A DNA stretch of 64,000 nucleotides from Minisyncoccia bacterium (GTDB lineage: Bacteria; Patescibacteriota; Minisyncoccia; UBA6257; 2-01-FULL-56-20). The notes beneath the pieces were generated by a model, which saw only the letters and a list, made by a program, of their open reading frames with translations, was not told the DNA's origin and did no database searches. Shown piece after piece: positions 4,818 to 60,325 of this stretch. The stretch lies in assembly GCA_050015515.1 (NCBI GenBank), contig JBEKBG010000002.1:18777-82776 (forward strand). The letters run 5' to 3'. The translations under genes were made by a program, and so were the position numbers. Each line of letters begins with the position of its first letter. Within the stretch, counting starts at the first letter, position 1.

Positions 4818-6935
4818 ATGCCCCGACAATATTCCATCGAGAAGACCCGCAACATCGGCATCATCGCGCACATCGATGCGGGTAAGACGACCGTCAGTGA
4901 ACGCGTGCTTTTTTATACCGGCGTTTCGCACAAGATCGGCGAGGTGCACACGGGCGACACGGTGATGGATTGGATGGAGCAGGAACGCGAGCGCGGCATC
5001 ACGATCACGAGCGCCGCGACGACCGCGTTCTGGACGCCCACGTATCACGCCGCGGGTCCCGACCATAAAAACTTCGAGCACCGCATCAACCTGATCGACA
5101 CTCCGGGCCACATTGACTTTACCGTGGAGGTAAAGCGCTCGCTGCGCGTTTTGGACGGCGCGGTCGTCGTATTCGACGGCGTCGCCGGCGTGGAGCCGCA
5201 GTCGGAGACCAACTGGCGCTACGCGGACGATTACAAAGTGCCGCGCATCTGCTTTATCAACAAGCTCGACCGCGCCGGCGCGGACTTTGAAAAGAGCTTC
5301 AAGTCCATCCTTGACCGCCTCACCCAGAACGCGATCCCGATCCAGCTGCCGATCGGCACCGAGGCGAACTTTAGCGCGGTCGTGAACCTGCTCGAGAACA
5401 AGGCGTATACCTTCGAAGGGGAGCACGGCGAGAATATCGTAGAGATCCCGATCCCGGCAGATATGATGGAGACGGTGGCAAAGCATCGCCATGATCTCAT
5501 CGAAAAGATCGCGGAGAACGACGACATCGTGATGGCGAATTACTTGGACGGAAAAGAGATCTCACTCGAGGACCTTCGCAAGACGTTACGCAAAGGCGTC
5601 ATCGCAAACACGATCGTGCCGGTCATGTGTGGTTCGGCGCTCAAGAACAAAGGCGTGCAGTTTATGTTGGATGCCGTCATCGAATACCTGCCGTCGCCGG
5701 CGGACATGCCGCCGATCATGGCGCATGACGAAAAGACGGGCGAAATTGTGCCGGTCAAGCTTACCGACGAAGAGCACTTTGCGGGTTTGGCCTTCAAGAT
5801 CGCAACGGATCCGTTCGTAGGAAACCTGGCGTTCTTCCGCGTCTATGCCGGCGTCCTTAAGAAAGGCTCGTATGTGTATAACTCCACGAAGGGTCAGCAG
5901 GAGCGCGTCAGCCGTATCGTCCGCATGCACGCGAACGACCGCGAAGAAGTGGACGAGGTCTACTCCGGCGAGATCGCCGCAATCGTGGGCTTAAAGGGCA
6001 CCACCACCGGCGACACATTGTGCGATCCGGATCACGCCGTCATTTTGGAAAAGATCACGTTCCCGGAGCCGGTCATCGGGTTGCGCATCGAACCGAAGAC
6101 AAAAGCGGACCAGGAGAAGATGGGCATTGCATTGCATCGCTTGGCGGAAGAAGATCCGACGTTCCGTGTGGAAGGCGATAACGAGACGGGGGAGACGATC
6201 ATCTCCGGCATGGGCGAATTGCACTTGGACATCATCGTGGACCGCATGAAGCGCGAGTTCAACGTCGGCGCAAACGTGGGTCGGCCGCAGGTGGCATACC
6301 GCGAAACGATCACGGCGGAAGCCGAGGGCGAAGGCAAGTACATCAAGCAATCCGGTGGACGCGGTCAGTACGGTCACGTTAAGTTGCGCGTAAAGCCGGG
6401 AGAAAAAGGCTCGGGATTCGTGTTCGTTGACGCAATCAAAGGCGGTTCCATTCCGAAAGAATTCATCAACCCAACAGAGAAAGGCGTCAAAGAAGCGATC
6501 GATAAAGGTATTGTCGCCGGCTATCACATGGTAGACGTGGAGGTAGAGCTCTACGATGGTTCGTTCCACGAGGTGGACTCTTCCGAAGCGTCATTCAAGA
6601 TCGCGGGTTCCATGGCATTCCAGGACGCAGCCAAGAAAGCCAAGCCGGTCATTCTCGAACCGATCATGAAGATCCAGGTCATCGTGCCGGACAACTTCAT
6701 GGGCGAGGTCACGGGCAACGTCAGCGGCAAGCGCGGCGCCATCGAATCGATCGACGATCGTCCGGGTCAGCTCAAGGTGGTGAATGCCAAAGTGCCGTTG
6801 TCCGAATTGTTTGGTTACGCTACCGAGCTTCGCTCGATGTCACAGGGGCGTGGTTCATTTACGATGGAATTTGATCACTACGAGGCGGCACCGCGCAATG
6901 TGACGGAGCAGATTATTGAGGGGAAGAAGCGCTAA
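4818..6935 (+). CDS. fusA: elongation factor G
   Basis: [17 protein letters not shown], full EF-G domain order; 705 aa; about 12-aa insertion after switch region. Confidence 0.97.
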
Positions 6936-7059
6936 AACAATATAGGGCACATGCTTTTGAAAGGACGGCGTTCCAGCCTGCTGGCTGGCCGCCTTGGCTC
7001 TCGCCGCCTTCGCGGCTCCGAGACACCTTTCAAAAGCATGTGCCCTATGTTGTTTTAGC
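6931..7059. repeat. long palindromic element, family 1 (34-bp arms plus conserved about 60-nt core)
   Basis: Arms GCTAAAACAATATAGGGCACATGCTTTTGAAAGG / reverse complement (1 G-T mismatch); 5' arm contains the fusA stop codon; core ACGGCGTTCCAGCCTGCTGGCTGGCCGCCTTGGCTCTCGCCGCCTTCGCGGCTCCGAGAC. Confidence 0.8.
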
Positions 7060-7151
7060 GACCCGTTTCAGAGTGATCTGCGGCACGGTGTTCTTGGGCC
7101 GGAGATGAAGGTAGTCTAGCGAATTAATAAGTGCTAACATGTTAAATATAG

Positions 7152-8981: not shown

Positions 8982-9251
8982 ATGTCCCAGAAAACCAGGA
9001 TCAAAAAGAATTTAGCGCTGTCGGCAGATTTCAACGCGTATATTTTGAGAAATCCGAAAGTGATGGATAAATTACCCAGGAAGGTCTGTATCGTTTTTGA
9101 AGACAAAAAGGACCAAATTTTTTCGCGGGCAAACTTGAACACGGCAAAAGATATTGCGAATAGCGAGAAATGTTTCGTTGCGAGTAAGTCTGGGTCTCGC
9201 TGGTCTTTGCGTCCGCTCGCCGTATGCTATAATCATCTTACAACCGAATAG
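8982..9251 (+). CDS. hypothetical small protein
   Basis: 89-aa ORF immediately after the Bro-N gene; no recognisable motif. Confidence 0.25.
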   Translation: MSQKTRIKKNLALSADFNAYILRNPKVMDKLPRKVCIVFEDKKDQIFSRANLNTAKDIANSEKCFVASKSGSRWSLRPLAVCYNHLTTE

Positions 9252-9397
9252 CCCATCAAGAGAGTGGAGATGCTAAGGGATCTGGCCCGATGCTCCGCCC
9301 GCAACCGATCGACGATTCGACACGGTGCGAAATCCAACCCTTCACGGGGAAGATGCTTCTTTTAGATCAACTGCCGTGTAGGCGGTTGTTTTTTTGC
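9252..9397 (+). promoter_or_regulatory. SAM-I (S-box) riboswitch with intrinsic terminator, upstream of metK
   Basis: CCATCAAGAGAGTGGAG..GGGATCTGGCCCGATG..CCGCCCGCAACC..GGTGCGAAATCC..GGGGAAGATGC matches S-box conserved blocks (ATCAAGAGAGG, GGGAYTGGCCCGATGA, GCAACC, GGTGC.AATTCC, GAAGATG); terminator CAACTGCC-GTGTA-GGCGGTTG plus T7. Confidence 0.8.
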
Positions 9398-9455: not shown

Positions 9456-10409
9456 ATGATAAAAACTGCGGAGTTTGTTTCGCCTCGGCATCCGGATAAA
9501 TTGTGCGACCTCATTGCGGATTCACTGCTCGATGCGTATCTGGCGGGGGATCCAAAGAGCCGCGTGGCGGCGGAGGTGATGGGTGGCCATGGGCACGTCA
9601 CGATCTCGGGGGAAGTGACGAGCGCGGCGTCGGTGGATATTCCAATTGTCGTGCGTTCCGTGCTGGGCTATGATGCGGCGGTGCATGCGTATCTTGTGCG
9701 GCAGAGTCCGGAGATCGCGCAGGGCGTGGATACGGGCGGCGCGGGAGATCAGGGCATTATGATCGGCTATGCCACGCGGGAGACGCCGTCGTTCCTACCG
9801 TTGGAATATGTGTTGGCGCGGGAGCTGTGCCGGAAGTTGTATGCCGTGTATCCGTATGACGGGAAGACGCAGGTAACGGTGGATGGTGATCGCGTGACAT
9901 GCGTCGTCGCAAGCTTTCAGAACGCTCCATCTGCCGCGCTTGAGGCGCTTGTGCGCGCATCCATAGTGGCGGACGAGTATCTGGTGAATCCCGCGGGCGA
10001 ATGGTCGCTCGGCGGCTTCGATGCGGATTCGGGGATCTCCGGGCGCAAGATCGTGATCGATAATTACGGGCCGGAGATCGGCGTGGGCGGCGGATCGTTC
10101 TCGGGCAAGGATCTCACCAAAGTGGATCGGTCGGGCGCATACATCGCGCGGCGCATCGCGGTGGATTACCTGGCGCGATTTTCGTCCGCGCGGGCGGTGC
10201 GTGTAAAGCTCGCGTACGCCATTGGCAAGCCACAGCCCGTCATGGCCGTGGCGGAATTAAGCGAGGGTTCCGGCGGTGTTCGCGTTGTGCCCGTTTCTGA
10301 TTACGACCTTACTCCTTCCGGCATCGCCACGCTTTTGAAGTTCTCTTCCGTGCGCTGGGCCGACACCGCCGCGTGGGGACACTTTGGGAGGGAGTTCAGC
10401 TGGGGATAG
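9456..10409 (+). CDS. metK: S-adenosylmethionine synthetase (short form, 317 aa)
   Basis: HPDK near N-terminus, GAGDQG, GGGSFSGKD..KVDRSGAY, GHFGR motifs. Confidence 0.85.
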   Translation: MIKTAEFVSPRHPDKLCDLIADSLLDAYLAGDPKSRVAAEVMGGHGHVTISGEVTSAASVDIPIVVRSVLGYDAAVHAYLVRQSPEIAQGVDTGGAGDQGIMIGYATRETPSFLPLEYVLARELCRKLYAVYPYDGKTQVTVDGDRVTCVVASFQNAPSAALEALVRASIVADEYLVNPAGEWSLGGFDADSGISGRKIVIDNYGPEIGVGGGSFSGKDLTKVDRSGAYIARRIAVDYLARFSSARAVRVKLAYAIGKPQPVMAVAELSEGSGGVRVVPVSDYDLTPSGIATLLKFSSVRWADTAAWGHFGREFSWG

Positions 10410-12505: not shown

Positions 12506-13705
12506 ATGGCAGAAAAAGAAAAGTTCGATCGGTCCAAGCCGCACCTTAACGTAGGTACGATTGGTCACGTCGATCATGGCAAGACCACGTTGACCGCGGC
12601 CATCACTCACGTGTTGTTCATGAAGGGCTGGACAAAAAAAGAAGAGAACGTAAATCAGATCGACAACGCTCCAGAAGAGAAGGCGCGTGGTATCACTATC
12701 GCGTTGCATCACTCGGAATATAATTCGGAGAAGCGCCACTACGCGCACGTGGATGCTCCGGGACACGCAGACTATATTAAGAACATGATCACCGGTGCCG
12801 CCCAGATGGACGGCGCGGTGCTCGTCGTCGCCGCGACCGACGGCCCGATGCCGCAGACGCGCGAGCACATCTTGCTCGCTCACCAGGTCGGTGTGCCGAA
12901 CATCATCGTGTTCCTCAATAAAGTTGATATGGTGGATGATCCGGAATTGATCGATCTCGTGGAATCCGAAGTTCGTGAGCTTCTCACGAAAAATGGATTT
13001 GACGGCGAACATGCGCCGGTCATCCGCGGTTCCGCATTGAAGGCATTGAACGCAACCTCGGCCGATTCTCCGGATGCCAAGCCGATCCTCGATCTCGTGA
13101 AGGCGATGGATGATTACTTCCCAGATCCGGTTCGCGAACTCGACAAGCCGTTTCTTATGCCGATCGAAGACATATTCTCGATTGAAGGCCGTGGCACGGT
13201 CGTCACGGGACGCATTGAGCGCGGCAAGGTGAAGGTGAACGAGGAAGTTGAGGTCGTTGGCCTTAAGCCGACCCAGAAGACCGTCGTCACCGGAATCGAA
13301 ATGTTCAACAAGAGTTTGGACGAAGGCCAGGCAGGCGATAACGCCGGTTTGCTCCTCCGCGGCCTCAAGAAAGAGGACGTGGAGCGCGGACAGGTTTTGG
13401 CCAAGCCGGGCAGCGTGACCCCGCACGCGGAGTTCGAAGGCGAGATCTATGTGCTTTCGAAAGAAGAGGGCGGCCGCCACTCTCCGTTCTTTAAGGGCTA
13501 CAAGCCGCAGTTCTACATCCGCACGACCGACGTGACGGGCGAGGTTACCCTTCCGGAAGGAATGGAAATGGTCATGCCGGGTGATACCGTCAAGATTACC
13601 GTCAAGCTTATCACCCCGGTCGCTTTGGAAGACAAGATGCGTTTCGCCATCCGCGAGGGAGGCAAGACCGTTGGCGCCGGCGTCGTGACCAAAATAATTA
13701 AGTAA
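12506..13705 (+). CDS. tuf: elongation factor Tu
   Basis: [27 protein letters not shown]; 399 aa; AT-rich upstream with no SD. Confidence 0.97.
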
Positions 13706-13816
13706 GCAACATAAAACCGCCTTACGGGGACGGGTCGCGGCCTGCTAGCCGCGCCCTAACGCTCGGCACCTTCGTGCCTCCGCGATTCCCCTTAAAGGCG
13801 GTTTTATATTGCTTAC
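13702..13816. repeat. long palindromic element, family 1 (divergent member) after tuf
   Basis: Arms GTAAGCAACATAAAACCGCCTT / AAGGCGGTTTTATATTGCTTAC include the tuf TAA; core has CGCGGCCTGCTAGCCGCG and GGCACCTTCGTGCC hairpins homologous to the family-1 core with compensatory changes. Confidence 0.75.
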
Positions 13817-13911
13817 GTTTTTAAATTTTGTCACGACGCCGCGCGTCTCCGGTTCTCTTCGGGAGGTGTTTTTGTTCGAGTGTTGAGGAGATACTCGGGC
13901 CTGAGCGACAT

Positions 13912-15981: not shown

Positions 15982-16102
15982 TGATGAACACGGCCCCGCG
16001 CGGAGAACTAACATTCCGCGCGGGGTTTTTCTTTTATGGATATCCCAATAAACCACGGGTTTGACACTTTCATGAAGTTTGCTATACTTTCTTGGTACTC
16101 AA

Positions 16103-16426
16103 ATGGCCAAAACAGACGTTCCCCAAAAACTGCGCTTGCGCATAAAGTCCTACGATCACAAACTGATCGACAATTCGGCACGCCAGATCATCGAGGCCGC
16201 CGAGCGGAACGATGCGAAAGTGACGGGGCCGATCCCGCTTCCCACGGAAGTAAAGCATTACACCGTCAACCGTTCGACCTTTGTCCACAAGGACGCTCGC
16301 GAGCAGTTCGAGCTCCGCATTCATAAGCGCCTCGTCGAAATATTGAATCCCAACCAGAAAATCATCGAATCACTTTCGAACCTGAATCTTCCTGCGGGCG
16401 TGGATATAGAAATAAAGATGGTTTAA
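16103..16426 (+). CDS. rpsJ: 30S ribosomal protein S10
   Basis: [23 protein letters not shown]…VTGPIPLPT; separated from rplC by a 3.9-kb insertion. Confidence 0.9.
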
Positions 16427-16507
16427 AACAAAAGCCCCCTCCTTTGCAAACGGAAATGCCACGTAGGAACGTGACCGTTTGCAAAGGAGGGGGCTTTTGT
16501 TTTAAAC
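16421..16507. repeat. long palindromic element, family 2, overlapping rpsJ stop
   Basis: Arms GTTTAAAACAAAAGCCCCCTCCTTTGCAAACGG / reverse complement (33 bp, perfect); arm contains GTT-TAA of rpsJ; core AAATGCCACGTAGGAACGTGA. Confidence 0.8.
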
Positions 16508-16693
16508 CGTGGACACCATAAGAAGAAGATTCAGAGAGCTTTACTGTCCATAAATGTTCGATCCCCGCGTCTCTTATGAAACACGGGGATCAGGGGAAAA
16601 TCCCGAATTGTTCCTTAATTGTATCGCGCCACCAGGATAAATCAAAAAGTTTTTAATAATTTTTTAATCTTTGAAAATGGTATAGTGAAGAAA

Positions 16694-17698
16694 ATGAAAG
16701 GATATATTGAGCATCCGGGGAAGGCGGTGGAGACGGGCGGAAAGTTCGAACACGTGATGGCGATTACGCTTGACCCGCGTTCGGGATATAAAAATGGCGT
16801 TATCCGATGCATCACGAATCGCTCCGGCGACGTGGAGACTTCCGGCTATATTGATAGAAGCGTGTTGCACAAAGTGAACGGAGATTCTTTGGAACATTTT
16901 GTTATTGGAGAACAGTTGGAAATTCACAGACAGGAGGAGATTATAAAAAAACTTAGCGTGGCAGGCCTCGATCTTCTTGGCCTAGAGGATCCCGATATTT
17001 GGATCGATGAGAAGGCCGGGCTGACACATCTGTATTTTACGATGCCATTCCATGACAGTAAGCCAGAGGATAATGGCCGTGTGCATCTTGGCCACGCCGT
17101 CGGTAAGGATCTCGATTCTTTGGAGATGACCATGCCGGTCTTGATGGGCGAAGTTCATAAAGCAGCGAAAGAACTTTCCATCGCGCCGGTCAATAAGCAT
17201 GGATTCCGTTTTAATCTCGTGGAATCTTCGATCAAGGAAAATGACTTTACCTATTCAACGGTGCGCGTCGCCGTCGCGGAAGATATGGGGAAGCCGTGGA
17301 AGTTCGGTGAGGCGGTATTCCATCCGAAAGAACAGAGCATTCCGTGGATTGGCGGTCACGCTTCGCCGGGGCCGTTGCTGCCCAAAGATTTCATCGATGT
17401 CGGCGAGGGGAAATTGCTGGGCATTATGAACGGCCGTGAAGCGAACCAGCGGGTGGGCGACGAGATAAAATATGGCATGTTCTCGGTCGGATTGTTCATC
17501 TACGATTACGAGCATGGGAAGATCGATTGGGTTTCGCCCGAGCCGTTCATTCGGGACAGCGAGGCGCGGACGATCACATTTGCGAGCCAGTTTGTGGAGC
17601 AGGGAAAGGGGAGCGGCATTCTCTACGCGCACGTGGACGATTCGTTCGTGCGGGCGTATACGCTGAACGCGGAGAAAATAAGGGAGTTGCTGCCGTAG
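16694..17698 (+). CDS. hypothetical protein (possible beta-propeller glycosidase/phosphorylase-like fold)
   Basis: 334-aa ORF from internal ATG 16694 (MKGYIEHPGK…); no definitive motif. Confidence 0.45.
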   Translation: MKGYIEHPGKAVETGGKFEHVMAITLDPRSGYKNGVIRCITNRSGDVETSGYIDRSVLHKVNGDSLEHFVIGEQLEIHRQEEIIKKLSVAGLDLLGLEDPDIWIDEKAGLTHLYFTMPFHDSKPEDNGRVHLGHAVGKDLDSLEMTMPVLMGEVHKAAKELSIAPVNKHGFRFNLVESSIKENDFTYSTVRVAVAEDMGKPWKFGEAVFHPKEQSIPWIGGHASPGPLLPKDFIDVGEGKLLGIMNGREANQRVGDEIKYGMFSVGLFIYDYEHGKIDWVSPEPFIRDSEARTITFASQFVEQGKGSGILYAHVDDSFVRAYTLNAEKIRELLP

Positions 17699-17745
17699 CT
17701 GTGGCCATAGGCATAGCGAGTTATTAAAAGATCATTAAAAAGTTT

Positions 17746-17773
17746 TTGACTTTATTTTTCTAACTTCTAAAAT
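17746..17773 (+). promoter_or_regulatory. promoter TTGACT-N16-TAAAAT, leaderless start at 17780
   Basis: -10 ends 17773, ATG 17780. Confidence 0.5.
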
Positions 17774-17779
17774 TGGGGG

Positions 17780-18058
17780 ATGATCAAAAAAGAAAATAAT
17801 AAGGATTCATCGGAGAGCGTTCTTTGCGCGCTAGGAAATTTGGATAAAAAATTTGATAAAAGATTCGATGCGGTTGATAAGCGGCTCGACATTCTCGAAG
17901 TGAGGATGGAAAATTTGGAAAGGTCTCATCGTAATACGGGCGTCCAGCTTGATAAGCTAGAACATAAATTTGACCTTTGTATTGAGGGATTTGGTGGACT
18001 GAACGAGCGAACTTCCAGGATCGAAGGAAGAGTTAGTATTCTTGAAGGGCTCGCATAG
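17780..18058 (+). CDS. small coiled-coil protein, hypothetical
   Basis: 92 aa with heptad repeats; similar in style to 2476..2691. Confidence 0.4.
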   Translation: MIKKENNKDSSESVLCALGNLDKKFDKRFDAVDKRLDILEVRMENLERSHRNTGVQLDKLEHKFDLCIEGFGGLNERTSRIEGRVSILEGLA

Positions 18059-18088
18059 TGTGGCTTTGGGCTGTGATATAATAGTGCT

Positions 18089-18631
18089 ATGGATGAAGAG
18101 AATAAGTCGGAACCGCAGAATAGCAGTGAAGCGGAGCCGCACCGTTCGCATGTGCAGGTTTTTGGTATGGACGTGAACACATCGTCCGAATCCAAAGAGG
18201 ATTGGCGCGCGCGCAAGGACGAGTGGAAAAAACAGCATCACGAACAGCGGGATCAGCAGCGGGCAGAGCACCGCGAGCAACGGAAGGCGCAGCATGAGCA
18301 ATGGCGTCACGACCATCATCACGAAGGTGGTCTGTTCTTCGGGATGATCGTACTCTTTGTGGGAGTCGTGGCACTGCTCTACACGATGGGCCTCGTCTCG
18401 CACGCGTTCTGGTACGTGATCCTGCCGTTCTGGCCGATCCTGCTCATCCTGTGGGGCGCGAGCATCATCCTTGGCCGCCACTGGTTCGCGCGGTTCATTG
18501 TTTTTCTCCTCGCGCTCGCGTTTCTTATCGTCGTCATCTTTTATGGCCTCGTCAAAACCGATTCGCCGGTCGTGAGCTCGCTTTCGCCCACCGTCGTTTC
18601 GGCAATCCAAAATACCCACACGCAATACTAA
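18089..18631 (+). CDS. membrane protein with charged His-rich N-terminus and 4 TM segments
   Basis: N-terminus rich in H/Q/R/E (…HHEQRDQQRAEHREQRKAQHEQWRHDHHHEGG) followed by LFFGMIVLFVGVVALLY… TM helices. Confidence 0.45.
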   Translation: MDEENKSEPQNSSEAEPHRSHVQVFGMDVNTSSESKEDWRARKDEWKKQHHEQRDQQRAEHREQRKAQHEQWRHDHHHEGGLFFGMIVLFVGVVALLYTMGLVSHAFWYVILPFWPILLILWGASIILGRHWFARFIVFLLALAFLIVVIFYGLVKTDSPVVSSLSPTVVSAIQNTHTQY

Positions 18632-18643
18632 TAAGACACTCTT

Positions 18644-19186
18644 ATGGGAGGAATCATCGTCGGCATCATCTTGATACTTATCGGCATCAGTGCCCTCACC
18701 GGCATTCCGTTTTTTGGTTTCCTCTTCGCCATCGTTCTTATCGCAATCGGCGTCCGCATGATCGCGCGGCGTTCGGTGCATAGCGGATGGCGCTGGGACG
18801 ATTATGACCACGATCATGACCATAACCATACGCACAAAACCGCGTCGGGCGAACGGAGCATCGACGAGGTCGCCATCTTCAGCCCGCTCAACAAATCCTA
18901 CACCGCTGAGCATTTTAAAGGAGGGAAGATCGTCATGGTCTTCTCCGGCGGAGAAGTGAATCTTACCCAGATCAAAACCGACGAGACCGAGATTCACCTG
19001 GAAGTCTCATCCATCTTCAGCGGCATTGAGATCGTCGTCCCCAAGGATTGGAAAGTAAAATCCAGCGCCAACGTCTTCCTCGGTAACGTAGACACGAGCG
19101 CTGCCCAAGGCGGTGACGGCACCACAACGCTGATCATCCACGGCGAAGCCGTCTTCGGGGAGATTGAGGTGCGGAAACAGAAGTAA
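18644..19186 (+). CDS. LiaF-like (DUF2154-type) membrane protein
   Basis: Two N-terminal TM helices, DHDHDHNH linker, C-terminal beta-rich domain with GG/VFLGNVD patterns as in LiaF/YvqF C-terminal domains. Confidence 0.5.
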   Translation: MGGIIVGIILILIGISALTGIPFFGFLFAIVLIAIGVRMIARRSVHSGWRWDDYDHDHDHNHTHKTASGERSIDEVAIFSPLNKSYTAEHFKGGKIVMVFSGGEVNLTQIKTDETEIHLEVSSIFSGIEIVVPKDWKVKSSANVFLGNVDTSAAQGGDGTTTLIIHGEAVFGEIEVRKQK

Positions 19187-19202
19187 TTATAATATTGAAG
19201 TC

Positions 19203-19892
19203 ATGGACGATGTCGCGAAGCAGTATAACGGATTTTCCAAAACCTATAGCGACAATCTTCAGGTTCAAGATGAAGTTGGGAATAGGGTGTTCTACGATGT
19301 CCTATCATCGATTGATATAAAAGAGAAAAAACTTTTGGATATTGGCTGTGGGGATGGTTCCGATCTTGTTAACTTTGAGAAAATGGGAGCGGTTTCATTT
19401 GGCATCGAGCCATCCGAAGAATTTGTAAAAGCGGCAAAAGAAAAATCACCACAACTGAATATTATAGTCGGGGCAGGGGAGAGCCTTCCGTTTTCCGACA
19501 AGGAATTTGATGTCGTCGTATCAAAATATGCATTACAGACTTCACCGAATGTTCAAAAAATTTTGAGCGAGGCGGCAAGAGTTTTAAAATCCGGAGGTTA
19601 TTTTATTTTCCTTTCAAAGCATCCAGTCAGACAGTTTCTGGAAAAGATCGAAACTTACAAGAAGCCTCAAGATATTAATTATTTCAATCAGAAAATCATT
19701 GATTCATTTATTTATGAGAAAAAAATTCATCTGCGCGAACCATCTCATACCCTTTCGGAATACTTTTCCAAAGACGTCTTCAAAAATTTCGATCTGCTCG
19801 ATTTTATAGAAGGCAGTGATTTTCCAGCATCCGAACAGATAAATGGGTATACCTATCCGACATTTTTTGTAGCAAAGCTTCTCCGTCGTTAA
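19203..19892 (+). CDS. class I SAM-dependent methyltransferase
   Basis: LDIGCGDGSDLVNFEKMG (motif I), VVSKYALQ (motif II region). Confidence 0.75.
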   Translation: MDDVAKQYNGFSKTYSDNLQVQDEVGNRVFYDVLSSIDIKEKKLLDIGCGDGSDLVNFEKMGAVSFGIEPSEEFVKAAKEKSPQLNIIVGAGESLPFSDKEFDVVVSKYALQTSPNVQKILSEAARVLKSGGYFIFLSKHPVRQFLEKIETYKKPQDINYFNQKIIDSFIYEKKIHLREPSHTLSEYFSKDVFKNFDLLDFIEGSDFPASEQINGYTYPTFFVAKLLRR

Positions 19893-19930
19893 GCGGCTTC
19901 GTATGCCAAGTGGCGATGTGGCCCTGCCTC

Positions 19931-20053
19931 CTTTCTTATGCTTTTTGAGGGACTATCGGAGGCCGCGAAGGCGGCCGAGATGGAGCGCCCGCGCAGCAGC
20001 GCGGGACGCGTGCCCGAAAAAAGCATAAGAAAGGAGGAAGGGCCGGAGCCCAT
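19931..20053. repeat. long palindromic element, family 1 (inverted core orientation)
   Basis: Arms GCCCTGCCTCCTTTCTTATGCTTTTT / AAAAAAGCATAAGAAAGGAGGAAGGGC; core reverse complement contains GGCCGCCTTCGCGGCCTCCGA and CCCGCGCTGCTGCGCGGG hairpin. Confidence 0.75.
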
Positions 20054-28496: not shown

Positions 28497-28937
28497 ATGA
28501 AACTTCATTCACGAACTTCTCTCCGCCCTAAGCGTCTTCAGCGCATCGGCCGTAGCGGCAAGCGCGGCAGTTATTCCGGCCGTGGTGTCAAAGGACAGCG
28601 CTCCCGCTCGGGACACCGCATCCGTCCGGCGGAACGCGATATCATTCTGAAGATCCCGAAGATGCGCGGATTCCGGAATAAGGAAAAGGCTGATGCGCCC
28701 GTCGTGTTCAATCTCGGTACGCTTTCCGGCAAGCTGAAGATACACGTGAGGGTTGGCGCCCCGCTTGAGGTCAGCTATGCACTTTTAAAGACCGTAAAGT
28801 TGTTAAAGAAAGATTATAAAGGCGTCGTAAAGATCCTTGGAACGGGGGATATCGCGTTCCCGATCGCTATCAGTGGCTTTGAAGTGTCAGCCAGCGCGAA
28901 AGCAAAAATCGAGAAAGCCGGTGGTAGTGTAAAATAA
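28497..28937 (+). CDS. rplO: 50S ribosomal protein L15
   Basis: Basic Gly-rich N-terminus RPKRLQRIGRSGKRG…; 146 aa. Confidence 0.92.
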   Translation: MKLHSRTSLRPKRLQRIGRSGKRGSYSGRGVKGQRSRSGHRIRPAERDIILKIPKMRGFRNKEKADAPVVFNLGTLSGKLKIHVRVGAPLEVSYALLKTVKLLKKDYKGVVKILGTGDIAFPIAISGFEVSASAKAKIEKAGGSVK

Positions 28938-29004
28938 AACAAATATGAACAGCCCTTTGCCTCCCCAAGATGGACCGTTCGGCAAAGGGCTGTTCATATT
29001 TGTT
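28938..29004. repeat. perfect 24-bp-arm palindrome between rplO and secY
   Basis: AACAAATATGAACAGCCCTTTGCC-(19 nt TCCCCAAGATGGACCGTTC)-GGCAAAGGGCTGTTCATATTTGTT; begins right after the rplO TAA. Confidence 0.8.
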
Positions 29005-29033
29005 TCCTTGTTTGTTTAATATAAGATAAAGAC

Positions 29034-30305
29034 ATGGAAAGATTTCTACAGATATTCAAAGTAAAGGAGCTCCGCAACAAGATCCTCATCGTGTTGGGGC
29101 TTTTGGTTGCCTATCGTGTGCTTGCCGCGATTCCGATCCCAGGGGTGAATGCGCAGGCGCTCCAGAATTATTTCAATTCCAACCAGCTGCTCGGGTTCCT
29201 CAACTTCTTCTCCGGTGGCGGACTCGCGAACCTTTCGGTCGTGATGCTTGGCGTCGGCCCGTACATCACTTCCACCATCGTCATGCAGCTCATGACCATC
29301 ATCTTCCCGAAGATGAAGGAGATGTATTACGAGGAGGGCGCCCGCGGCCAGGCGAAGTTCAACCAATACTCGCGTTTGCTCACCGTGCCGTTCGCGTTCG
29401 TGCAGTCCTACGGATTCCTGAGTCTGCTCATGTCGCAGGGCGTGATCCCGCATCCGGACGCGTTTGACCTGATCCGTAACGTGATTGTGATCACGTGCGG
29501 CTCGATGCTCGCGCTCTGGCTCGGCGAACTCATCACCGAAGAGAAGGTGGGCAACGGCATCTCACTCATCATCTTGGCTGGTATCCTGGCGCGCATCCCG
29601 CAGAGCGTCGGAACCGCGTTCGCGTCCTACACCGCCCAGCTTTTGACCTCGTATGTTGGGTTCCTCGTCGTGGGACTATTGCTCATCGCTGGCGTTGTAT
29701 ATCTGAACGAAGGCGAACGGAAAATACCTGTTGCGTACGCAAGGCGTGTTCGCGGCACCAAAATGTACGGTGGCGCACAAAGCTATCTGCCTCTCAAGGT
29801 GAATCAGGCGGGCATGATTCCGCTTATCTTTGCGATCTCCGTCCTGCTCTTCCCGCAATTCCTGGCAACGATCATCGCGCTCTTTTCGGCATCGTGGGGG
29901 CTAAAGGTAAGTGCCTTTGCGCAGGCCTTTGTGGCAAACCAGTTGTGGTACGGCATATTCTATTTCCTACTGGTATTTATCTTTACGTATTTCTATACCG
30001 CGATCACGTTCAATCCGGAAGAGGTTGCCAAAAATCTCCAGCAGAGCGGGGGATTTGTGCCGGGCATCCGGCCGGGCGAGAACACGGAGAAGTTCTTCCA
30101 TGGCGTGGTAAACCGCATCACGTTCTTCGGCGCGGCGTTCCTTGGTCTTATCGCGATCCTGCCGATCATCGTGCAATCGATCACGGGGGTCTCGGTTCTT
30201 ACGATCAGTGGCACCGCGTTATTGATCGTCGTTGCGGTTGCGCTCGAGACCATGCGCATGGTGGATTCGCAGTTGACGGTGAGGGAATATGAGGGCATAG
30301 AATAA
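29034..30305 (+). CDS. secY: preprotein translocase subunit SecY
   Basis: 423 aa, 10 TM, characteristic LGVGPYITSTIVMQL… GG…. Confidence 0.95.
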   Translation: MERFLQIFKVKELRNKILIVLGLLVAYRVLAAIPIPGVNAQALQNYFNSNQLLGFLNFFSGGGLANLSVVMLGVGPYITSTIVMQLMTIIFPKMKEMYYEEGARGQAKFNQYSRLLTVPFAFVQSYGFLSLLMSQGVIPHPDAFDLIRNVIVITCGSMLALWLGELITEEKVGNGISLIILAGILARIPQSVGTAFASYTAQLLTSYVGFLVVGLLLIAGVVYLNEGERKIPVAYARRVRGTKMYGGAQSYLPLKVNQAGMIPLIFAISVLLFPQFLATIIALFSASWGLKVSAFAQAFVANQLWYGIFYFLLVFIFTYFYTAITFNPEEVAKNLQQSGGFVPGIRPGENTEKFFHGVVNRITFFGAAFLGLIAILPIIVQSITGVSVLTISGTALLIVVAVALETMRMVDSQLTVREYEGIE

Positions 30306-30412
30306 AACACCCCTCCTTTGAAAGGACGGCGTTCCGGTCTGCTGACCGGCCGCCTTGGCTCTCGCCGCCTTCGCGGCTCCGAGACACCTTTCGAAGGAAG
30401 GGTGTGTTATTC
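30300..30412. repeat. long palindromic element, family 1 (near-identical core to 6931-7059)
   Basis: Arms GAATAAAACACCCCTCCTTTGAAAGG / CCTTTCGAAGGAAGGGTGTGTTATTC (3 mismatches); arm includes the secY TAA; core differs from the fusA copy only by compensatory CCAGCC…GGCTGG to CCGGTC…GACCGG. Confidence 0.8.
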
Positions 30413-30516
30413 TATGCCTGGTGACTAGAGAAAGAAGTATTGATAAACGATTGACGGATTTTCTAATGAAAGATATAATACCGCCAGGCTTCAAATAGGT
30501 TCTAGGAGGAAAGATC

Positions 30517-47074: not shown

Positions 47075-49648
47075 ATGGCAGACGAATTATCACTCGACGC
47101 GCTTGCGAAGAAAACGCCCGACGAGATCTTTGCGGCGCTCAAAACCTCCGCGCGTGGGCTTTCCGCGCAAGAGGCGGCCGCGCGGCTCACGACCTACGGC
47201 CCGAACGAGTTTGCGGGTCGGAAAAAACTCCAGCCACTTTTGATATTTCTTTCCAAATTTCGGAACCCGCTGCAGATCCTGTTGATCGTCGCGGCGATCA
47301 TCTCCGGCATTTTGGGATCACACATCGAGGCGATCATCATTTTAGTGATCGTGTTCGGCAGCGCGTTCATCGATTTCTTCAATACGTATAAATCCGCACA
47401 GGCGGCGGAGGCGCTGCAGGAAAAAGTGACGATCACCGCGGCGGTGATGCGCGGCGGTGAGTTGAAAGAGCGCTCGTTGCGCGAAGTGGTGCCGGGAGAT
47501 GTTTTTACGCTGGAAGCGGGGGATCTGGTCCCCGCCGACGCGATCGTCATTGAAGCGCATGATTTGTTTTTGAACGAAGGCGTGCTGACGGGGGAATCGT
47601 TGCCGGTGGAGAAAGAGGCGGGGGTCGCGACGGGCGCGTCGGCATCGACGGGGTTCGCCGCGCGGACCATCCTCCTCGGCACCAGCGTGGTTTCCGGCAA
47701 CGGCACGGCGGTGGCGGTGCTGACGGGCGCGCACACGAGCGTAGGCAATATCGCAGACAAGCTCAAGCGCCCGGACGCACCGACAGAGTTTGAAAAGAAC
47801 CTCAAAGATTTCAGTCTGTTCATTTTCCGCACTACGTTATTTCTGGTACTCGCCGTCATCTTGCTGAATATTTTTGTGATCCGACGCGATCCGTTGCAGA
47901 TTTTCATCTTTGCAGTCGCGATCGCGGTCGGCCTCACGCCGGAGCTGTTGCCGCTCATCGTCACGAGCAATCTCGCCAAGGGCGCCATCGAGATGTCCAA
48001 AAATGGCGTCATCGTCAAGAAGCTGGCGGCGATCCACAACTTTGGTAGCGTGGATGTGCTTTGCACGGACAAGACCGGTACGCTCACGGAAGATCGCATC
48101 ACTTTGATAAAATGTGTGGACGTCATGGGCGTAGAGAGCGATGAGACGAATCTGTGGGGTTATCTGAGCAGCAAGAACTTGACCGGTGTGCGTGGCGTAC
48201 TTGACGAAGCGATAGAGGAATTTAAAAAAATAGATATCGCCGGTTGGGAAAAGGTAGATGAGATCCCGTTCGATGCCGAGCGAAAGCTGGAATCGGTGAT
48301 CGTAAAAAAAGGGAAGGATACCGTGTTAATCGCAAAGGGTGCCCCAGAAGAGATTTTAAAGATAGCGGATCATTACGACGGACATCTCAGCGTGAGCGGT
48401 AAAGCGATCAAGCCGAAAAAACTCACGCCCGCGCTCCGCGCCAAGATCAATAAAGAGTACGAGGCGCTCTCCGCCGACGGCTTCCGCGTGCTCGCGCTCG
48501 GTATAAAAGAGGTCGCGCATAAGACGACGCCGTATAGCAAAAAAGACGAGAGCGATATTTCCTTCGTCGGTTTCCTCGCATTCCTCGATCCGCCGAAAAA
48601 GAGCGCCAAGGACACGCTTGCCAAGATGGCGGCGTATCACGTGGCGATCAAGATCATCACCGGTGACAACTTTTTGGTGACGAAAAAAATCGCGGACGAG
48701 ATCGGTCTGCCGATCATCGGTGCGCTCACGGGCGATGAGATGGCAAAGATGAACGAGCACGAACTTCACGCCAAGGTGGAGACGGCGAACATCTTTACGC
48801 GTGTCAACCCGGAGCAGAAGGAACACATTATTCGCATCTTGCGCGAGAACAAGCACGTCGTGGCGTATATGGGCGACGGCGTGAACGATGTCCTCTCTAT
48901 TAAGGAGGCGGACGTTGGCATCTCCGTCAATAACGCAGTGGATATTGCCAAGGAAACGGCAGACATCATTTTGCTGCGCAAAGGACTCGGCGAAATCATC
49001 GACGGCATCGTGGAGGGCCGCAAGACGTTCGCCAACACGTTCAAATATCTGATGATGGCGCTCTCGTCAAACTTCGGCAACATGTTCAGCATGCCGATCG
49101 CGTCCGTCTTCCTGCCGTTCCTGCCGATGACCGCGCCGCAGATCTTGCTCAACAACTTTCTCTACGATTCGTCACAGCTCTCAATCCCGTTCGACAAAGT
49201 GGACCAGGATTTCCTCGCACGGCCCAAAAAATTCAACATCGCGTACATGAAGAAGTTCATGTACATCTTCGGTCCGCTGTCGTCGCTCTTTGATTTTGCC
49301 ACGTTCGGCGTTCTACTCCTTGTGCTACATACGAATGGCATGGCGTTTCAGACCGGCTGGTTCCTAGAATCCATCGCCACGCAAACGCTTGTCGTGAACA
49401 TCATCCGGAGCAAGTTTAACTTCTGGCAGAACGGGGGACCGAGCAAAGCGCTCGTCCTCGCCACGTTCGGCGCCGTCGCCGTCGGCTGGGGGATCACGTA
49501 CTCGTTCCTCGGTCCCGCGTTCGGCTTCGCGAAGTTCGGGCTGTATCCGGTGTTGCTTATCTTGGTGATCGTTGCGGCATATCTGCTACTCGTGGAGTTC
49601 GTAAAAAAGTATTTCTTTAGGAAGTATGAATATTTGATAGAGAAATAA
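47075..49648 (+). CDS. P-type ATPase, MgtA-like (Mg2+ importing)
   Basis: DKTGTLT, TGES, MGDGVNDVLS motifs; N-terminus resembles MgtA (…LSAQEAAARLTTYGPNE…); adjacent mgtC-family gene. Confidence 0.8.
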   Translation: MADELSLDALAKKTPDEIFAALKTSARGLSAQEAAARLTTYGPNEFAGRKKLQPLLIFLSKFRNPLQILLIVAAIISGILGSHIEAIIILVIVFGSAFIDFFNTYKSAQAAEALQEKVTITAAVMRGGELKERSLREVVPGDVFTLEAGDLVPADAIVIEAHDLFLNEGVLTGESLPVEKEAGVATGASASTGFAARTILLGTSVVSGNGTAVAVLTGAHTSVGNIADKLKRPDAPTEFEKNLKDFSLFIFRTTLFLVLAVILLNIFVIRRDPLQIFIFAVAIAVGLTPELLPLIVTSNLAKGAIEMSKNGVIVKKLAAIHNFGSVDVLCTDKTGTLTEDRITLIKCVDVMGVESDETNLWGYLSSKNLTGVRGVLDEAIEEFKKIDIAGWEKVDEIPFDAERKLESVIVKKGKDTVLIAKGAPEEILKIADHYDGHLSVSGKAIKPKKLTPALRAKINKEYEALSADGFRVLALGIKEVAHKTTPYSKKDESDISFVGFLAFLDPPKKSAKDTLAKMAAYHVAIKIITGDNFLVTKKIADEIGLPIIGALTGDEMAKMNEHELHAKVETANIFTRVNPEQKEHIIRILRENKHVVAYMGDGVNDVLSIKEADVGISVNNAVDIAKETADIILLRKGLGEIIDGIVEGRKTFANTFKYLMMALSSNFGNMFSMPIASVFLPFLPMTAPQILLNNFLYDSSQLSIPFDKVDQDFLARPKKFNIAYMKKFMYIFGPLSSLFDFATFGVLLLVLHTNGMAFQTGWFLESIATQTLVVNIIRSKFNFWQNGGPSKALVLATFGAVAVGWGITYSFLGPAFGFAKFGLYPVLLILVIVAAYLLLVEFVKKYFFRKYEYLIEK

Positions 49649-49720
49649 AAATACCCTAGGCATCTCGCTCCGACGTAAGCACGTCCACTCGCTCAATGCC
49701 TAGGGTATTTTTATTTCTCT
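49639..49720. repeat. long palindromic element, family 3, overlapping ATPase stop
   Basis: 25-bp arms AGAGAAATAAAAATACCCTAGGCAT / reverse complement containing GAG-AAA-TAA; core CTCGCTCCGACGTAAGCACGTCCACTCGCTCA. Confidence 0.8.
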
Positions 49721-53979: not shown

Positions 53980-54066
53980 GCAGAAACAAAATAGCAATCC
54001 TGTTTTTGACGGTCATGTTCCGACGTGGCATTTCCGTCAAAAACAGGATTGCTATTTTGTTTCTGC
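53980..54066. repeat. long palindromic element, family 2; 3' arm encodes the C-terminus and stop of the convergent RF1-like gene
   Basis: 33-bp perfect arms GCAGAAACAAAATAGCAATCCTGTTTTTGACGG / reverse complement; core TCATGTTCCGACGTGGCATTT. Confidence 0.8.
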
Positions 54067-54777
54067 GAACGCCTTCACGATCGGATCAAACTCGCCTTCC
54101 ATGATCTTCTCGATGTTGTGCCACTTTTTGCCGAGGCGGTGGTCGGTGATGCGGTCGTCGGGGAAGTTATAGGTGCGGATCTTTTCCGAGCGGTCGGCGG
54201 AGCCGATCTGGTCACGGCGATCCTGGGCGATGTTGCCGGCGGCGCGGATCTGTTCTAATTCATAGAGCTTTGCGCGCAAGACGTCCATCGCTTTCTCGCG
54301 GTTCGCGTATTGCGAGCGCTCCTCGCGCGAGGCGACGACGATGCCGGTGGGCTTGTGCAAAATACGCACCGCAGTTTCCACTTTGTTGACGTTTTGTCCG
54401 CCCGGGCCGCCCGCGCGTGAGAACGTCACCTCGAGATCGTTCGGCGAGACGTTCACTTCGCGCGCTTCCACAATCGGCAAAATTGCCACGGAGGCGGTGG
54501 AGGTATGTACGCGCCCCGCCTTTTCCGTCTTCGGGATGCGCTGCACGCGATGCACGCCCGATTCGTGCTTCAAAGCTTCGTAGCAACCCTCTCCTCTTAC
54601 CTCGGCGGTCAGGCTTTTATATCCTTGCGAATTCTCGCTCGCGTCTAGAATGGAAAAACTCCAACCTCGCCGCGCGGCGTAGCGCTGATACATGCGCGCC
54701 AGATCGCCGGCAAAAATAGAAGCTTCGTCGCCGCCGGCGCCGGCCCGTATTTCCACAATGATCTTGTTGGTGGTCAT
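54052..54777 (-). CDS. peptide chain release factor 1-like protein lacking N-terminal domain 1
   Basis: GGQ motif (…[19 protein letters not shown]…), RF1-type codon-recognition tripeptide PKT; only 241 aa; no room upstream for a domain 1. Confidence 0.7.
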
Positions 54778-54821: not shown

Positions 54822-55211
54822 ATGGCAGAACAAAAACTTATCTTGATCGTCGATGATGAGCTGGCATTCCGGGAGATCTTTGGCGCCAAGTTCGCCGCCG
54901 ATGGATTCCGTATTGAGACCGCCGAGAACGGGCAGATCGGCATTGAAAAGGCAAAGGCGCTCAAGCCGGATCTGATCCTTATGGATGTGAATATGCCGGT
55001 AATGGACGGCCCTACCGCGGTGTTGAAACTCCGCGACGATCCGGAAACGAAGGGCCTGAAGGTGGTATTTCTTACCAACCTGGGCAATCCGCAGAAAGAA
55101 ATGCAAGAGTTGAACCATAAATTTTCACAGGATTTCGGTGCGCAAGGATATTTAAAAAAGACCGATGATCTTGACGCTTTGAACGAAAGAGTAAAAGCAT
55201 TTCTCGTATGA
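54822..55211 (+). CDS. single-domain response regulator receiver (CheY-like)
   Basis: LIVDDE…D(54)…K pattern; 129 aa. Confidence 0.85.
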   Translation: MAEQKLILIVDDELAFREIFGAKFAADGFRIETAENGQIGIEKAKALKPDLILMDVNMPVMDGPTAVLKLRDDPETKGLKVVFLTNLGNPQKEMQELNHKFSQDFGAQGYLKKTDDLDALNERVKAFLV

Positions 55212-55603
55212 GAGAGAAACCGTTGATCCTTGTGGTGGATGATGAGCAGGACCTTCGGGAGATCATGGTGTTAAAGTTGAGCGCGTCGGGGTTTGAGGCG
55301 ATCGTCGCTACCGATGCAAAAGAAGGGGTCGCCGCGGCAAAGCAATCGCATCCCGATCTCATATTGATGGACATCCATATGCCGGGCGAGTCGGGAACCG
55401 ACGCGGCGCTTGAGATCAAACAGAATCCGGAAACGAAAGACATCAAAATCGCATTTTTGAGCAACCTCAAAGACCCATGGCCACGAACCGCGCCCGCGCG
55501 CAACGATCTGGCGAAGTCGCTCGGCATGGAGGACTTTATCGATAAAACAGAAGACTTGGATATTACTGTTGCAAAAGTGCGAGAAATTTTAGCACGCGCA
55601 TAG
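55208..55603 (+). CDS. single-domain response regulator receiver (CheY-like)
   Basis: LVVDDEQDLREI…LILMDIHMPG…; 131 aa; overlaps previous gene by 4 nt. Confidence 0.85.
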   Translation: MREKPLILVVDDEQDLREIMVLKLSASGFEAIVATDAKEGVAAAKQSHPDLILMDIHMPGESGTDAALEIKQNPETKDIKIAFLSNLKDPWPRTAPARNDLAKSLGMEDFIDKTEDLDITVAKVREILARA

Positions 55604-55678
55604 CAAAAGACCCTTCTTCTTTTTGACGGTTACGTTCCTACGTGGCATTTCCGTCAAAAAGAAGAAGGGTCTTTTGCT
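55602..55678. repeat. long palindromic element, family 2 between receiver gene and rpmE
   Basis: 28-bp perfect arms AGCAAAAGACCCTTCTTCTTTTTGACGG / reverse complement; core TTACGTTCCTACGTGGCATTT. Confidence 0.8.
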
Positions 55679-55684
55679 ATGCGC

Positions 55685-55927
55685 TTATTGTTTCTTCGGG
55701 CGTATTTTCTTCGGCTTCGGTTCAACCTTGGCGGCGCGGCGTGACTTGAACTTCTCTACGCGTCCTGCGGTGTCGATCAACTTCTCTTCTCCGGTGTAGA
55801 ACGGATGGCATTGCGCGCAAATTTCAACGCGGATCTCTTCCTGGGTGGCGCCGGTCGTGAACGTGTTGCCGCAGGCGCAGATGACCGTCGCCTTCGGAAA
55901 ATACTTTGGATGGATTCCTGTTTTCAT
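55685..55927 (-). CDS. rpmE: 50S ribosomal protein L31
   Basis: [23 protein letters not shown]… C…C…C..C zinc motif. Confidence 0.88.
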
Positions 55928-56587: not shown

Positions 56588-58140
<1,553 letters not shown>

Positions 58141-58271
58141 TAATCTATAAAATTCGTTTTTATAGAGTCGAACTTTCTTCTCTTTGGCCAGCGAATCGAT
58201 CGCAGGCGAAAGCGAGGGAGGTAATTGGGACAACTAAAAAGCTCTTTGTATAAATATGGTAGAATATATCT

Positions 58272-60160: not shown

Positions 60161-60173
60161 TTTGATGCGATCT

Positions 60174-60302: not shown

Positions 60303-60325
60303 ATGGTCTGTTATAATCATTTCCA

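Follow-up and report, generated by a model that had tools for sequence, protein, structure and literature searches.

Terminator-like palindromes with a shared, invertible apical cassette in a Parcubacteria bacterium and its relatives

The 64,000-nucleotide stretch of DNA analyzed here (the window; contig JBEKBG010000002.1 of a Minisyncoccia bacterium) comes from the genome of a Parcubacteria (Candidate Phyla Radiation, CPR) bacterium and carries three long perfect palindromes with a common 21-nt core, which we assign to a family named F2. As far as sequence can tell, F2 is a family of terminator hairpins that share an exchangeable and invertible apical cassette: in place of a tetraloop, the apex holds a unit of ∼41-53 nt made up of a T-run, a GACGG clamp, the 21-nt core, CCGTC, and an A-run. 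We see an about even chance that these elements are bidirectional Rho-independent terminators whose apical cassettes are exchanged independently of any transposase, and whose tip would act as a recognition handle at the RNA level.

An inverted-repeat search of the window recovers all three palindromes where a preliminary description of this DNA had placed them, each with 21 nt between its arms. The arms are as perfect as described there, but they are 33-34 bp long rather than 28-33 bp. The elements and two of the genes into which they extend are, in window positions:

16420-16453, plus strand: element 1, 5' arm, 34 bp at 100%, sequence GGTTTAAAACAAAAGCCCCCTCCTTTGCAAACGG; it holds the last two rpsJ codons and the TAA stop (16424-16426), an A-run, a C-rich stem, TTTGCAA, and the ACGG clamp.
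16454-16474, plus strand: element 1, core, identical to the consensus (0 mismatches) and sense for the rpsJ mRNA; bulge AAATGC 16454-16459, CACGT 16460-16464, loop AGGA 16465-16468, ACGTG 16469-16473, A 16474.
16475-16508, plus strand: element 1, 3' arm, perfectly complementary to 16420-16453 and terminating in GGGGGCTTTTGTTTT (a U-tract in RNA).
53980-54012, plus strand: element 2, NUDIX-side arm, 33 bp, perfect; the release-factor coding end on the opposite side recurs, inverted, in its outer 15 nt (53980-53994, GCAGAAACAAAATAG).
54013-54033, minus strand: element 2, core, AAATGCCACGTCGGAACATGA, 2 mismatches to the consensus; sense for the minus-strand release-factor gene.
54034-54066, plus strand: element 2, release-factor-side arm, covering the final 4 codons of the release-factor gene and its TAG stop.
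54052-54777, minus strand: release-factor (RF) gene, stop codon at 54052-54054.
55208-55603, plus strand: response-regulator receiver gene.
55596-55629, plus strand: element 3, receiver-side arm, 34 bp at 100%, covering the final 8 nt of the receiver gene including its TAG (55601-55603).
55630-55650, minus strand: element 3, core, AAATGCCACGTAGGAACGTAA, 1 mismatch to the consensus; sense for rpmE.
55651-55684, plus strand: element 3, rpmE-side arm, abutting the stop codon (55685-55687) of minus-strand rpmE (L31).

The core 21-mer AAATGCCACGTAGGAACGTGA is present in all three elements with 0-2 mismatches and has no match in 100 dinucleotide shuffles. All three elements fold as a single hairpin (-62 to -69 kcal/mol, z = -13 to -15), in which the core forms a 5-bp mini-hairpin (CACGU-AGGA-ACGUG) flanked by 6 bulged nt (AAAUGC) and, on the opposite side, by a single nt; apart from 11 unpaired nucleotides, the F2 unit is a DNA palindrome, and the inverted repeat of element 2 reaches 38 nt at 95% when extended into the core. 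The motif ACGTAGGAACGT, previously called self-complementary, is not so as a whole; it corresponds to ACGT-N4-ACGT within CACGT-AGGA-ACGTG, the 5-bp mini-hairpin with its tetraloop.

The core is not confined to the window. When one genome per GTDB species was scanned for the exact pattern, with 18 of the 21 core positions fixed, five metagenome-assembled genomes (11 loci) proved to contain the core, two under the label Candidatus Parcubacteria and three under 'uncultured bacterium', and a scan of metagenomes returned 85 stretches, mainly from peat and bog samples. After 6 bare chance matches were discarded, 80 distinct copies with arms of at least 15 bp remained, of which 49 are perfect; the arms typically measure 28-37 bp, and clustering by flanks gives 39 independent genomic sites. 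The genomes of relatives were sampled as pieces of 1-15 kb, ∼0.6 Mb of fetched DNA overall, whose loci are denoted by L-numbers. The window's own proteins are found in four independent same-species assemblies (L012-L015), with the same element sequences. The shuffles, these assemblies, and the ∼80 further copies rule out chance or an assembly artefact as the source of the shared 21-mer, and the dispersed family is genuine. IMG/VR contains no F2 copy, which argues against a phage origin. Rfam 15 at gathering threshold reports only 16S rRNA and three tRNAs in the window, with no family for F2, and in E-value mode adds just generic long-hairpin (miRNA-precursor-like) matches far below threshold, so that F2 is not a known RNA family. 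A sub-threshold SAM riboswitch match spans the full-length model at 9250-9357 (plus strand; 39.2 bits against a gathering value of 44.4, E = 5e-6), upstream of the gene at 9456-10409.

Outward from the core, 83 copies share a fixed layout. Positions 1-5 are GACGG (∼95%) and positions 6-10/11 a T-run; at positions 12-19 the 5' arm has pyrimidines only and the 3' arm purines; an A-run (AAAACAAAA) paired with a T-run fills positions 20-30, and pairing fades beyond ∼30-34. The arms had been described as locus-specific; given this layout that view cannot be kept, the inner ∼10-16 nt being part of the shared unit. We tried to tie the pyrimidine/purine asymmetry of the arms to core orientation, which proved wrong: a perfect palindrome reads alike on both strands, so the C-rich 5' and G-rich 3' asymmetry belongs to the hairpin and not to the core. 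This arm layout is that of a putative bidirectional intrinsic terminator with an extra inner helix, and F2 has the sequence features by which intrinsic terminators are recognized, a GC-rich stem and a T/U-tract just past a stop codon. The preliminary description, whose interpretation is otherwise partly supported, did not contain this bidirectional-terminator nature of the arms. The plain terminators of these genomes, too, consist of perfect palindromes, of 19-21 bp and including the stop codon.

The gene context of the copies was determined with our own codon-usage gene finder, trained on the long open reading frames of these loci. The upstream stop codon lies ∼-15 to +6 nt from the arm edge in most of 80 copies, and the contexts are co-directional in 36 cases, convergent in 14, and divergent in 1; the lone divergent case is probably a gene-call error, its orthologues being co-directional. 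The genes upstream of F2 copies include those for S10, L31, L7/L12, L11, L21, S18, EF-Tu, EF-G, GroEL, Hsp20, and cold-shock (CSD) and RRM proteins, and many are highly expressed housekeeping genes. Downstream of element 1, an extended -10 box (TGGTATAGT, 16678-16686) stands 7 nt ahead of the next ATG (16694), and 'tggtataat' extended -10 promoters follow several other copies.

Several features of the neighborhood deserve separate mention. The gene rpsJ, whose product has a confirmed S10 domain, is seemingly monocistronic, with its own promoter (TTGACA-16-TATACT, 16061-16088). Five non-ribosomal genes (16619-19892) separate it from rplC; they encode 359-aa and 92-aa proteins without a Pfam match, two LiaF-like membrane proteins, and a class I methyltransferase, and the block is flanked by the F2 hairpin (16420-16508) and by a hairpin of a second family, F1 (19920-20044). 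The release-factor gene next to element 2 is short (241 aa), consisting of the C-terminal half of the PCRF domain and the RF-1 domain; the RF1/RF2 N-terminal domain is missing, and the sequence is 97-98% conserved in relatives. We rejected the GGAGG of the 3' arm as a ribosome site: it is paired, it is wrongly spaced to the starts, and the 16S 3' end is without CCUCC. The 16S 3' tail (58128-58141; gene 56603-58141) reads GGATCAATTAAACT instead of GGATCACCTCCTTA, and the canonical CCUCC anti-Shine-Dalgarno sequence appears to be absent, although the rRNA may continue further or hold an intervening sequence. Extended -10 boxes lie 6-8 nt ahead of several start codons, a leaderless-mRNA look that is consistent with this 16S tail.

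Comparison of orthologous sites shows the cassette present in some species and replaced in others. At the 3' end of rpsJ, three relatives (L008, L056, L034) have a plain perfect palindrome, in which GTCTAAAACAAAAAGCCCCGC and its complement enclose GAAA or GCGA (a GNRA loop); the rpsJ stop falls within it, its arms share homology with the outer arms of the window element, and the flanks are 87-90% identical. Where these relatives have GC-GAAA-GC, the window has CTCC-TTTGCAAACGG-core-CCGTTTGCAAA-GGAG, so that the filled site differs from the empty one by replacement of GC-GAAA-GC, not by insertion with duplication. No target-site duplication was found in the family either: the flanks of 73 palindromes have 0-, 1-, and 2-nt repeats in 53, 15, and 5 cases, versus 51.9, 15.8, and 4.3 in shuffled controls.

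Insertion of the core together with one arm, which had been put forward as a check on the elements, is seen at several sites. At tuf, the window carries an F1-like hairpin (13695-13823), whereas L008, L056, L034, and L099 carry F2; after the F2 hairpin, L056 and L008 still have the 3' half of the old F1-like core together with the old right arm, which indicates that the local left arm was copied in inverted form to give the new right arm, placed before the remnant. At the junction of the RF and NUDIX genes, L028 (RF 98% identical), L004, and L035 lack the palindrome and keep the RF C-terminus AE[TNE]K-stop, so the outer 15 nt of the far arm of element 2 are mirrored coding sequence. L032 and L005 repeat the pattern: the arm with conserved coding sequence is mirrored in L032, and the mirror copy is absent from L005. 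In L005 (3248-3300, compared with L032 2313-2393), the end of the orthologous gene is followed by TCCGTTCTTCTTTATTTACGGAACGCCGCAATGAAACTCG, with the ATG of the next gene inside it; this looks like a decayed left arm and core without a right arm, either a remnant or a chance resemblance.

Families also replace one another. At fusA, F2 occurs in L006 and L048 and F1 in the window (6930-7060), and L020 and L025 have F2 at a site where L062 has F1. One site holds, depending on the species, F2 (L053, L088, L097), F1 (L064), a diverged F2 (L051), or a chimera (L069 6533-6629, core AAACGCCACGTAAGAACGTGA) whose left arm resembles the L051 allele and whose right arm resembles the L088/L097 allele, the two pairing over only ∼4 bp; the chimera looks like an intermediate of cassette exchange that has yet to be resolved. 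Another site has F2 (L097) or a further family, F4 (L069, L088), and F4 is inverted between L069 and L088. Only rpsJ (window) and tuf (L034, L099) have the inner-arm subtype CCTCC-TTTGCARACGG, these being neighboring terminators separated by 2.7 kb, which points to the transfer of a ∼53-nt unit, and inner-arm subfamilies cross loci more generally (135 pairs at 13/15 identity or more, against 33 expected). An estimate of the exchanged unit from the limit of arm homology (∼18-24 nt from the core) was set aside as weak, since neutral arm divergence would look alike; sharing within genomes, together with the rpsJ/tuf subtype, gives the better bound of 41-53 nt. In the 0.6 Mb of fetched loci there are no split or half cores and no longer core-bearing element. 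We therefore rejected a larger element with the core at its ends, the sole partial copy (L064) being a ∼145-bp tandem duplication that starts in the core. This duplication (L064 3860-4140) has its junction inside the F2 core, from TAGGAACGTGA, and doubles the right half and the downstream flank; it is either a product of replication slippage at the hairpin or an assembly artefact.

Sister families of apical cassettes occur in the window and its relatives. F1 comprises long palindromes at gene 3' ends (window 6930-7060, 30294-30418, and, in reverse orientation, 19920-20044), with related elements at 13695-13823 and 60155-60322; these sites follow fusA, secY, a methyltransferase gene, tuf, and another gene. 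At the apex of F1 lies a core of 56-71 nt that contains two inner hairpins, with conserved loops (TGCT and CTTC) and covarying stems (CCAGCC/GGCTGG versus CCGGTC/GACCGG); its inner arms (TTTTGAAAGG) resemble those of F2 (TTTTTGACGG), and it occupies sites that have F2 in relatives. F3 (window 49639-49720 and 58978-59051; L004 3206-3277, L035 974-1051, L069 7841-7912, L009 413-509) has an apex of 30-32 nt, TCGCTCC-RRCGT-NNNN-ACGYC-CACTCGCT, with a covarying mini-stem (GACGT/ACGTC versus GGCGT/ACGCC); the window copy at 58978 has the 12-mer ACGTAGGAACGT in common with F2, and the L009 copy has a loop insertion. F4 (L021, L022, L046, L057, L058, L069, L092) and F5 (L020, L025, L032, L062, L074) are long perfect palindromes with the loop GAATTATTCTTATCACGA and a loop containing AGAAGATTAA, respectively. 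The window also has a palindrome with 25-bp arms and a 19-nt loop between the rplO-like and secY genes (28937-29005). The phenomenon of apical families is general in the clade.

The pairing of the arms bears on how they are maintained. In an ungapped alignment of 79 F2 copies, 97.9% of cells are paired, compared with 73.6% after shuffling and 43-58% when the arms are slid, and double-sided changes occur in 27 of 30 arm pairs (631 cells). G.U accounts for ∼20 cells against ∼58 non-pairs, and among arm mismatches there are 20 of A.C type and 16 of G.U type. Selection on an RNA helix would tolerate G.U, and the rarity of G.U therefore indicates that the arms act as a palindrome at the level of DNA, one arm serving as template for the other. 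On the same ground we rejected selection on the stem through RNA alone, G.U pairs being as rare as A.C mismatches. Arms restricted to Watson-Crick pairs suggest upkeep at the DNA level, probably by template switching within the hairpin.

The core is far better conserved than either the arms or the flanking coding DNA, to judge from the copies compared. Its three pattern-free positions vary in 1-7% of copies, versus 40-50% at arm positions 12-19, and sites common to 4-5 species keep the core where coding flanks are ∼84% identical and arms ∼27% diverged. With a covariance model derived from the alignment, all copies are recovered at 78-102 bits, their opposite strands scoring ∼43 bits lower, and the model also detects two diverged relatives in L051 that have GCGC for the GACGG clamp and CACUG/CAGUG or CGAG/CUCG as the mini-stem, but retain the bulge AAAUAC and the loop CGGA (in general, an AAAURC bulge and an NGGA loop). 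A subgroup (L023, L091, L100, L042) has GCGC-type clamps too. Covarying helices combined with conserved unpaired bases are expected of a nucleic-acid structure that is read through its single-stranded parts. The spacer is the most variable part of terminators in general (PMC13155455), and F2 is the reverse of this norm. By eye, the core fits none of the k-turn, parS, -35/-10 promoter, or attC readings that we tried, and its complementarity to rRNA and tRNA of the window is limited to chance 9-11-mers and the 12-mer common with F3, at 59008.

The core was already known to occur in either orientation, and its orientation even inverts between species at a single locus: at the rpmE/receiver site, the arms in L004 are identical to those of the window and the core is exactly inverted. 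Both orientations also occur among species at two co-directional sites, and orthologue pairs number 19 flipped and 53 in the same orientation, so orientation is labile. At independent co-directional sites, nonetheless, the mRNA strand of the upstream gene reads AAAUGCC...AGGA in 20 cases, the opposite in 2, and is tied in 1 (binomial p = 1.2e-4; raw copy counts 30 versus 6). An orientation that is labile and yet held at ∼5:1 suggests selection on the transcribed or the non-template single-stranded form.

It is instructive to compare F2 with known repeat systems. Like the GTAG- and CGTC-tagged REP/REPIN families (PMC3733652), F2 consists of short dispersed palindromes located mostly 3' of genes, between co-directional or convergent open reading frames, plausibly transcribed as 3' hairpins, and lineage-specific, with several families possible per genome. 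In REP/REPIN, however, the stem is conserved and the loop varies, whereas arm positions 12-30 of F2 differ between loci; and the unpaired GTAG/CGTC tag at the foot of the REP hairpin (PMC3733652) contrasts with A/T-rich, locus-specific outer ends in F2, where GTAG is confined to the apical mini-hairpin and CGTC to the paired clamp. In the window and the 0.6 Mb of loci we noticed no RAYT gene, although no search aimed at one was made. [quoted passage not shown] F2 differs from them in having no target-site duplication, in sharing only ∼10-16 nt per arm between copies while the remaining stem is made from, or co-evolves with, local DNA, and in that the cassette replaces the apex of an existing terminator instead of being inserted beside it. 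As terminal repeats of the MITE type, these inner 10-16 nt (T-run and GACGG, sometimes CTCC/CTCTCA) are of low complexity and internal to a longer hairpin, and no related autonomous insertion sequence was found in the fetched loci or IMG/VR.

Bidirectional intrinsic and long-stem terminators (PMC10325885) share with F2 the A-run, GC-rich stem, and T-run just after the stop, a symmetry that makes them usable from both strands, promoters just downstream, and plain versions at orthologous sites; F2 departs from ordinary terminators in its stems of 30-37 bp, in a structured and conserved 21-nt apex in place of a 3-5-nt loop, and in that this apex is common to dozens of unrelated genes. Parvovirus terminal hairpins have, as F2 does, an asymmetric tip in two inverted orientations (flip/flop) on identical arms, but F2 is chromosomal and internal, with no replication terminus. 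Integron attC sites are also structure-defined hairpins at gene 3' ends with little conservation of stem sequence. They conserve the outer R''/R' boxes (RYYYAAC / GTTRRRY) and extrahelical bases rather than the apex and are found in cassette arrays with an integrase nearby, whereas the outer arm ends of F2 are variable and its sites follow ribosomal-protein, EF-Tu, EF-G, and GroEL genes with their own promoters. In its workings F2 resembles the 3' hairpins of REP, ERIC, or Correia type and the terminator-like SPRITE, but it does not match the defining traits of REP, MITE, or attC, and its conserved-loop, local-stem architecture runs opposite to theirs.

The reading that we favor, that of terminators with exchangeable cassettes and a recognized tip, would work as follows. 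Intra-hairpin (quasipalindrome) template switching during replication would keep the arms perfect and would extend them into flanking DNA, coding ends included, and the same class of strand switch would flip the loop. Template switching is an established route by which quasipalindromes are perfected, and this form of mutagenesis (Ripley model; PMC7202029) accounts for Watson-Crick-only arms, for concerted arm change, for growth of the arms into flanking and coding DNA, and for chimeric intermediates; it is known as a source of mutation at single hotspots rather than as a means of upkeep and spread of a repeat family, and the link to F2 is one that we infer. Ectopic template switching or gene conversion could carry the cassette between terminators with no transposase involved, microhomology being provided by the T/A-runs and C/G stems common to all terminators of these genomes. 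The tip would stay constant because a trans-acting factor reads the unpaired AAAUGC bulge and the NGGA tetraloop in the mRNA 3' hairpin; the reader would most likely be an RNA-binding protein that influences the stability or processing of 3' ends, or termination, in highly expressed genes. Such a handle at the RNA level is suggested by the bias toward sense, by the frozen state of bulge and loop, and by the association with genes of high expression. Long stems make terminators resistant to processive antitermination (PMC10325885), which does not explain the sequence conservation of the tip.

Several observations weigh against this reading. Termination and RNA-level recognition are both inferred from nucleotide patterns. 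The 18 of 21 core positions fixed by the scan pattern inflate the apparent invariance of the core, and only ∼7 copies (second copies within a locus, or orthologues) are independent of the pattern, of which 5 are exact and 2 have diverged by 2 changes each. Three stem variants (elements 2 and 3, L097) are A.C in the sense RNA and G.U in the antisense RNA, opposite to the prediction from sense-RNA structure (n = 3, not significant). Replication direction or a copying mechanism with a preferred direction, instead of an RNA function, could lie behind the orientation bias; antisense copies persist, and F1 in the window has no orientation bias (3:2). Copy number varies widely among related genomes, a distribution typical of selfish repeats, with ∼2 exact-pattern matches in a complete 0.88-Mb chromosome versus 3 in the 64-kb window. 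A candidate reader protein was not found either; tblastn searches for CsrA (as a reader of the GGA loop), Hfq, and RNase III gave no match in the 0.6 Mb of sampled DNA, a result that is not conclusive for genomes that were only sampled. A bolder form of the proposal, which we consider unlikely, is that the interchangeable apex cassettes of F2 and its sister families are mRNA 3'-hairpin tags for dedicated RNA-binding factors, written, moved, flipped, and proof-read by replication template switching without a transposase. Such tags would be a bacterial counterpart of the histone-mRNA stem-loop and SLBP, marking highly expressed genes, with an architecture inverse to that of REP and MITE elements.

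The patchy presence of F2 at orthologous sites, where families replace one another, and its very different copy number between related genomes would also suit a selfish miniature mobile element without host function. An enzyme, such as an HUH/RAYT-like nuclease, would then recognize the core hairpin in single-stranded DNA and copy the cassette into terminator apices, and the core would be constant since only intact copies propagate. HUH nick sites have a conserved loop on a variable stem, which is the architecture of F2; the flip-flop of the loop resembles hairpin-transfer systems, and the inner-arm subfamilies common to several loci agree with mobility. We nevertheless think this explanation improbable: the flanks look like the shuffled control, with no target-site duplication, neither the fetched DNA nor IMG/VR yields the half cores, longer elements, or viral copies mentioned above, old copies shared by 4-5 species have intact cores, unlike those of a birth-and-death repeat, and orientation is biased 20:2 relative to transcription. 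That bias would be equally unexpected if the core were a symmetric duplex site, the duplex or cruciform CACGT-N4-ACGTG within GACGG...CCGTC being bound by a dimeric DNA-binding protein that organises the nucleoid, poses a roadblock, functions in replication or repair, or recognizes a DNA-uptake signal, with terminators merely a tolerated location. The strictly Watson-Crick arms without G.U excess, the near-complete DNA palindrome of the unit, and the interrupted 5+4+5 palindrome of its core are in favor of a DNA-level site. Uptake signals of Neisseria and Haemophilus are likewise located in terminators. For such a signal the density is low (∼1 per 20 kb, or far below that), the three window copies differ in orientation, which speaks against a replichore-polar signal, and conservation falls on the positions that the hairpin form leaves unpaired; a DNA-level site seems to us quite unlikely.

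It is also conceivable, though very improbable in our judgment, that the elements are ordinary long-stem terminators whose tip is a young, passive passenger, spread recently by gene conversion and contributing only hairpin length. The perfect 19-21-bp palindromes of the plain terminators would fit such a passenger, as would the several unrelated apical families at equivalent sites, which suggest that the sequence may not matter, and the resistance to processive antitermination that stem length alone gives (PMC10325885). A passenger would not be expected to surpass the flanking coding DNA in conservation across species with the same site, to retain its bulge and GGA loop in diverged relatives with changed helices, or to show an orientation bias, and it would occupy what is usually the most variable part of a terminator (PMC13155455).

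Whatever its function, F2 is an unusually clean natural record of palindrome dynamics, in which homogenisation of arms, growth into coding ends, inversion of the loop, swapping of cassettes, and chimeras are visible at orthologous sites, and it suggests a way in which repeats may spread without a transposase. With stop codons lying inside 30-bp perfect palindromes, these hairpins can confuse both assembly and the annotation of gene ends in metagenome-derived CPR genomes. Gene-expression signals have hardly been studied in CPR/Patescibacteria, whose genomes are tiny; should the tip be a recognition handle, F2 would represent a lineage-specific layer of post-transcriptional or termination control on their most highly expressed genes, those for ribosomal proteins, EF-Tu, EF-G, and GroEL.

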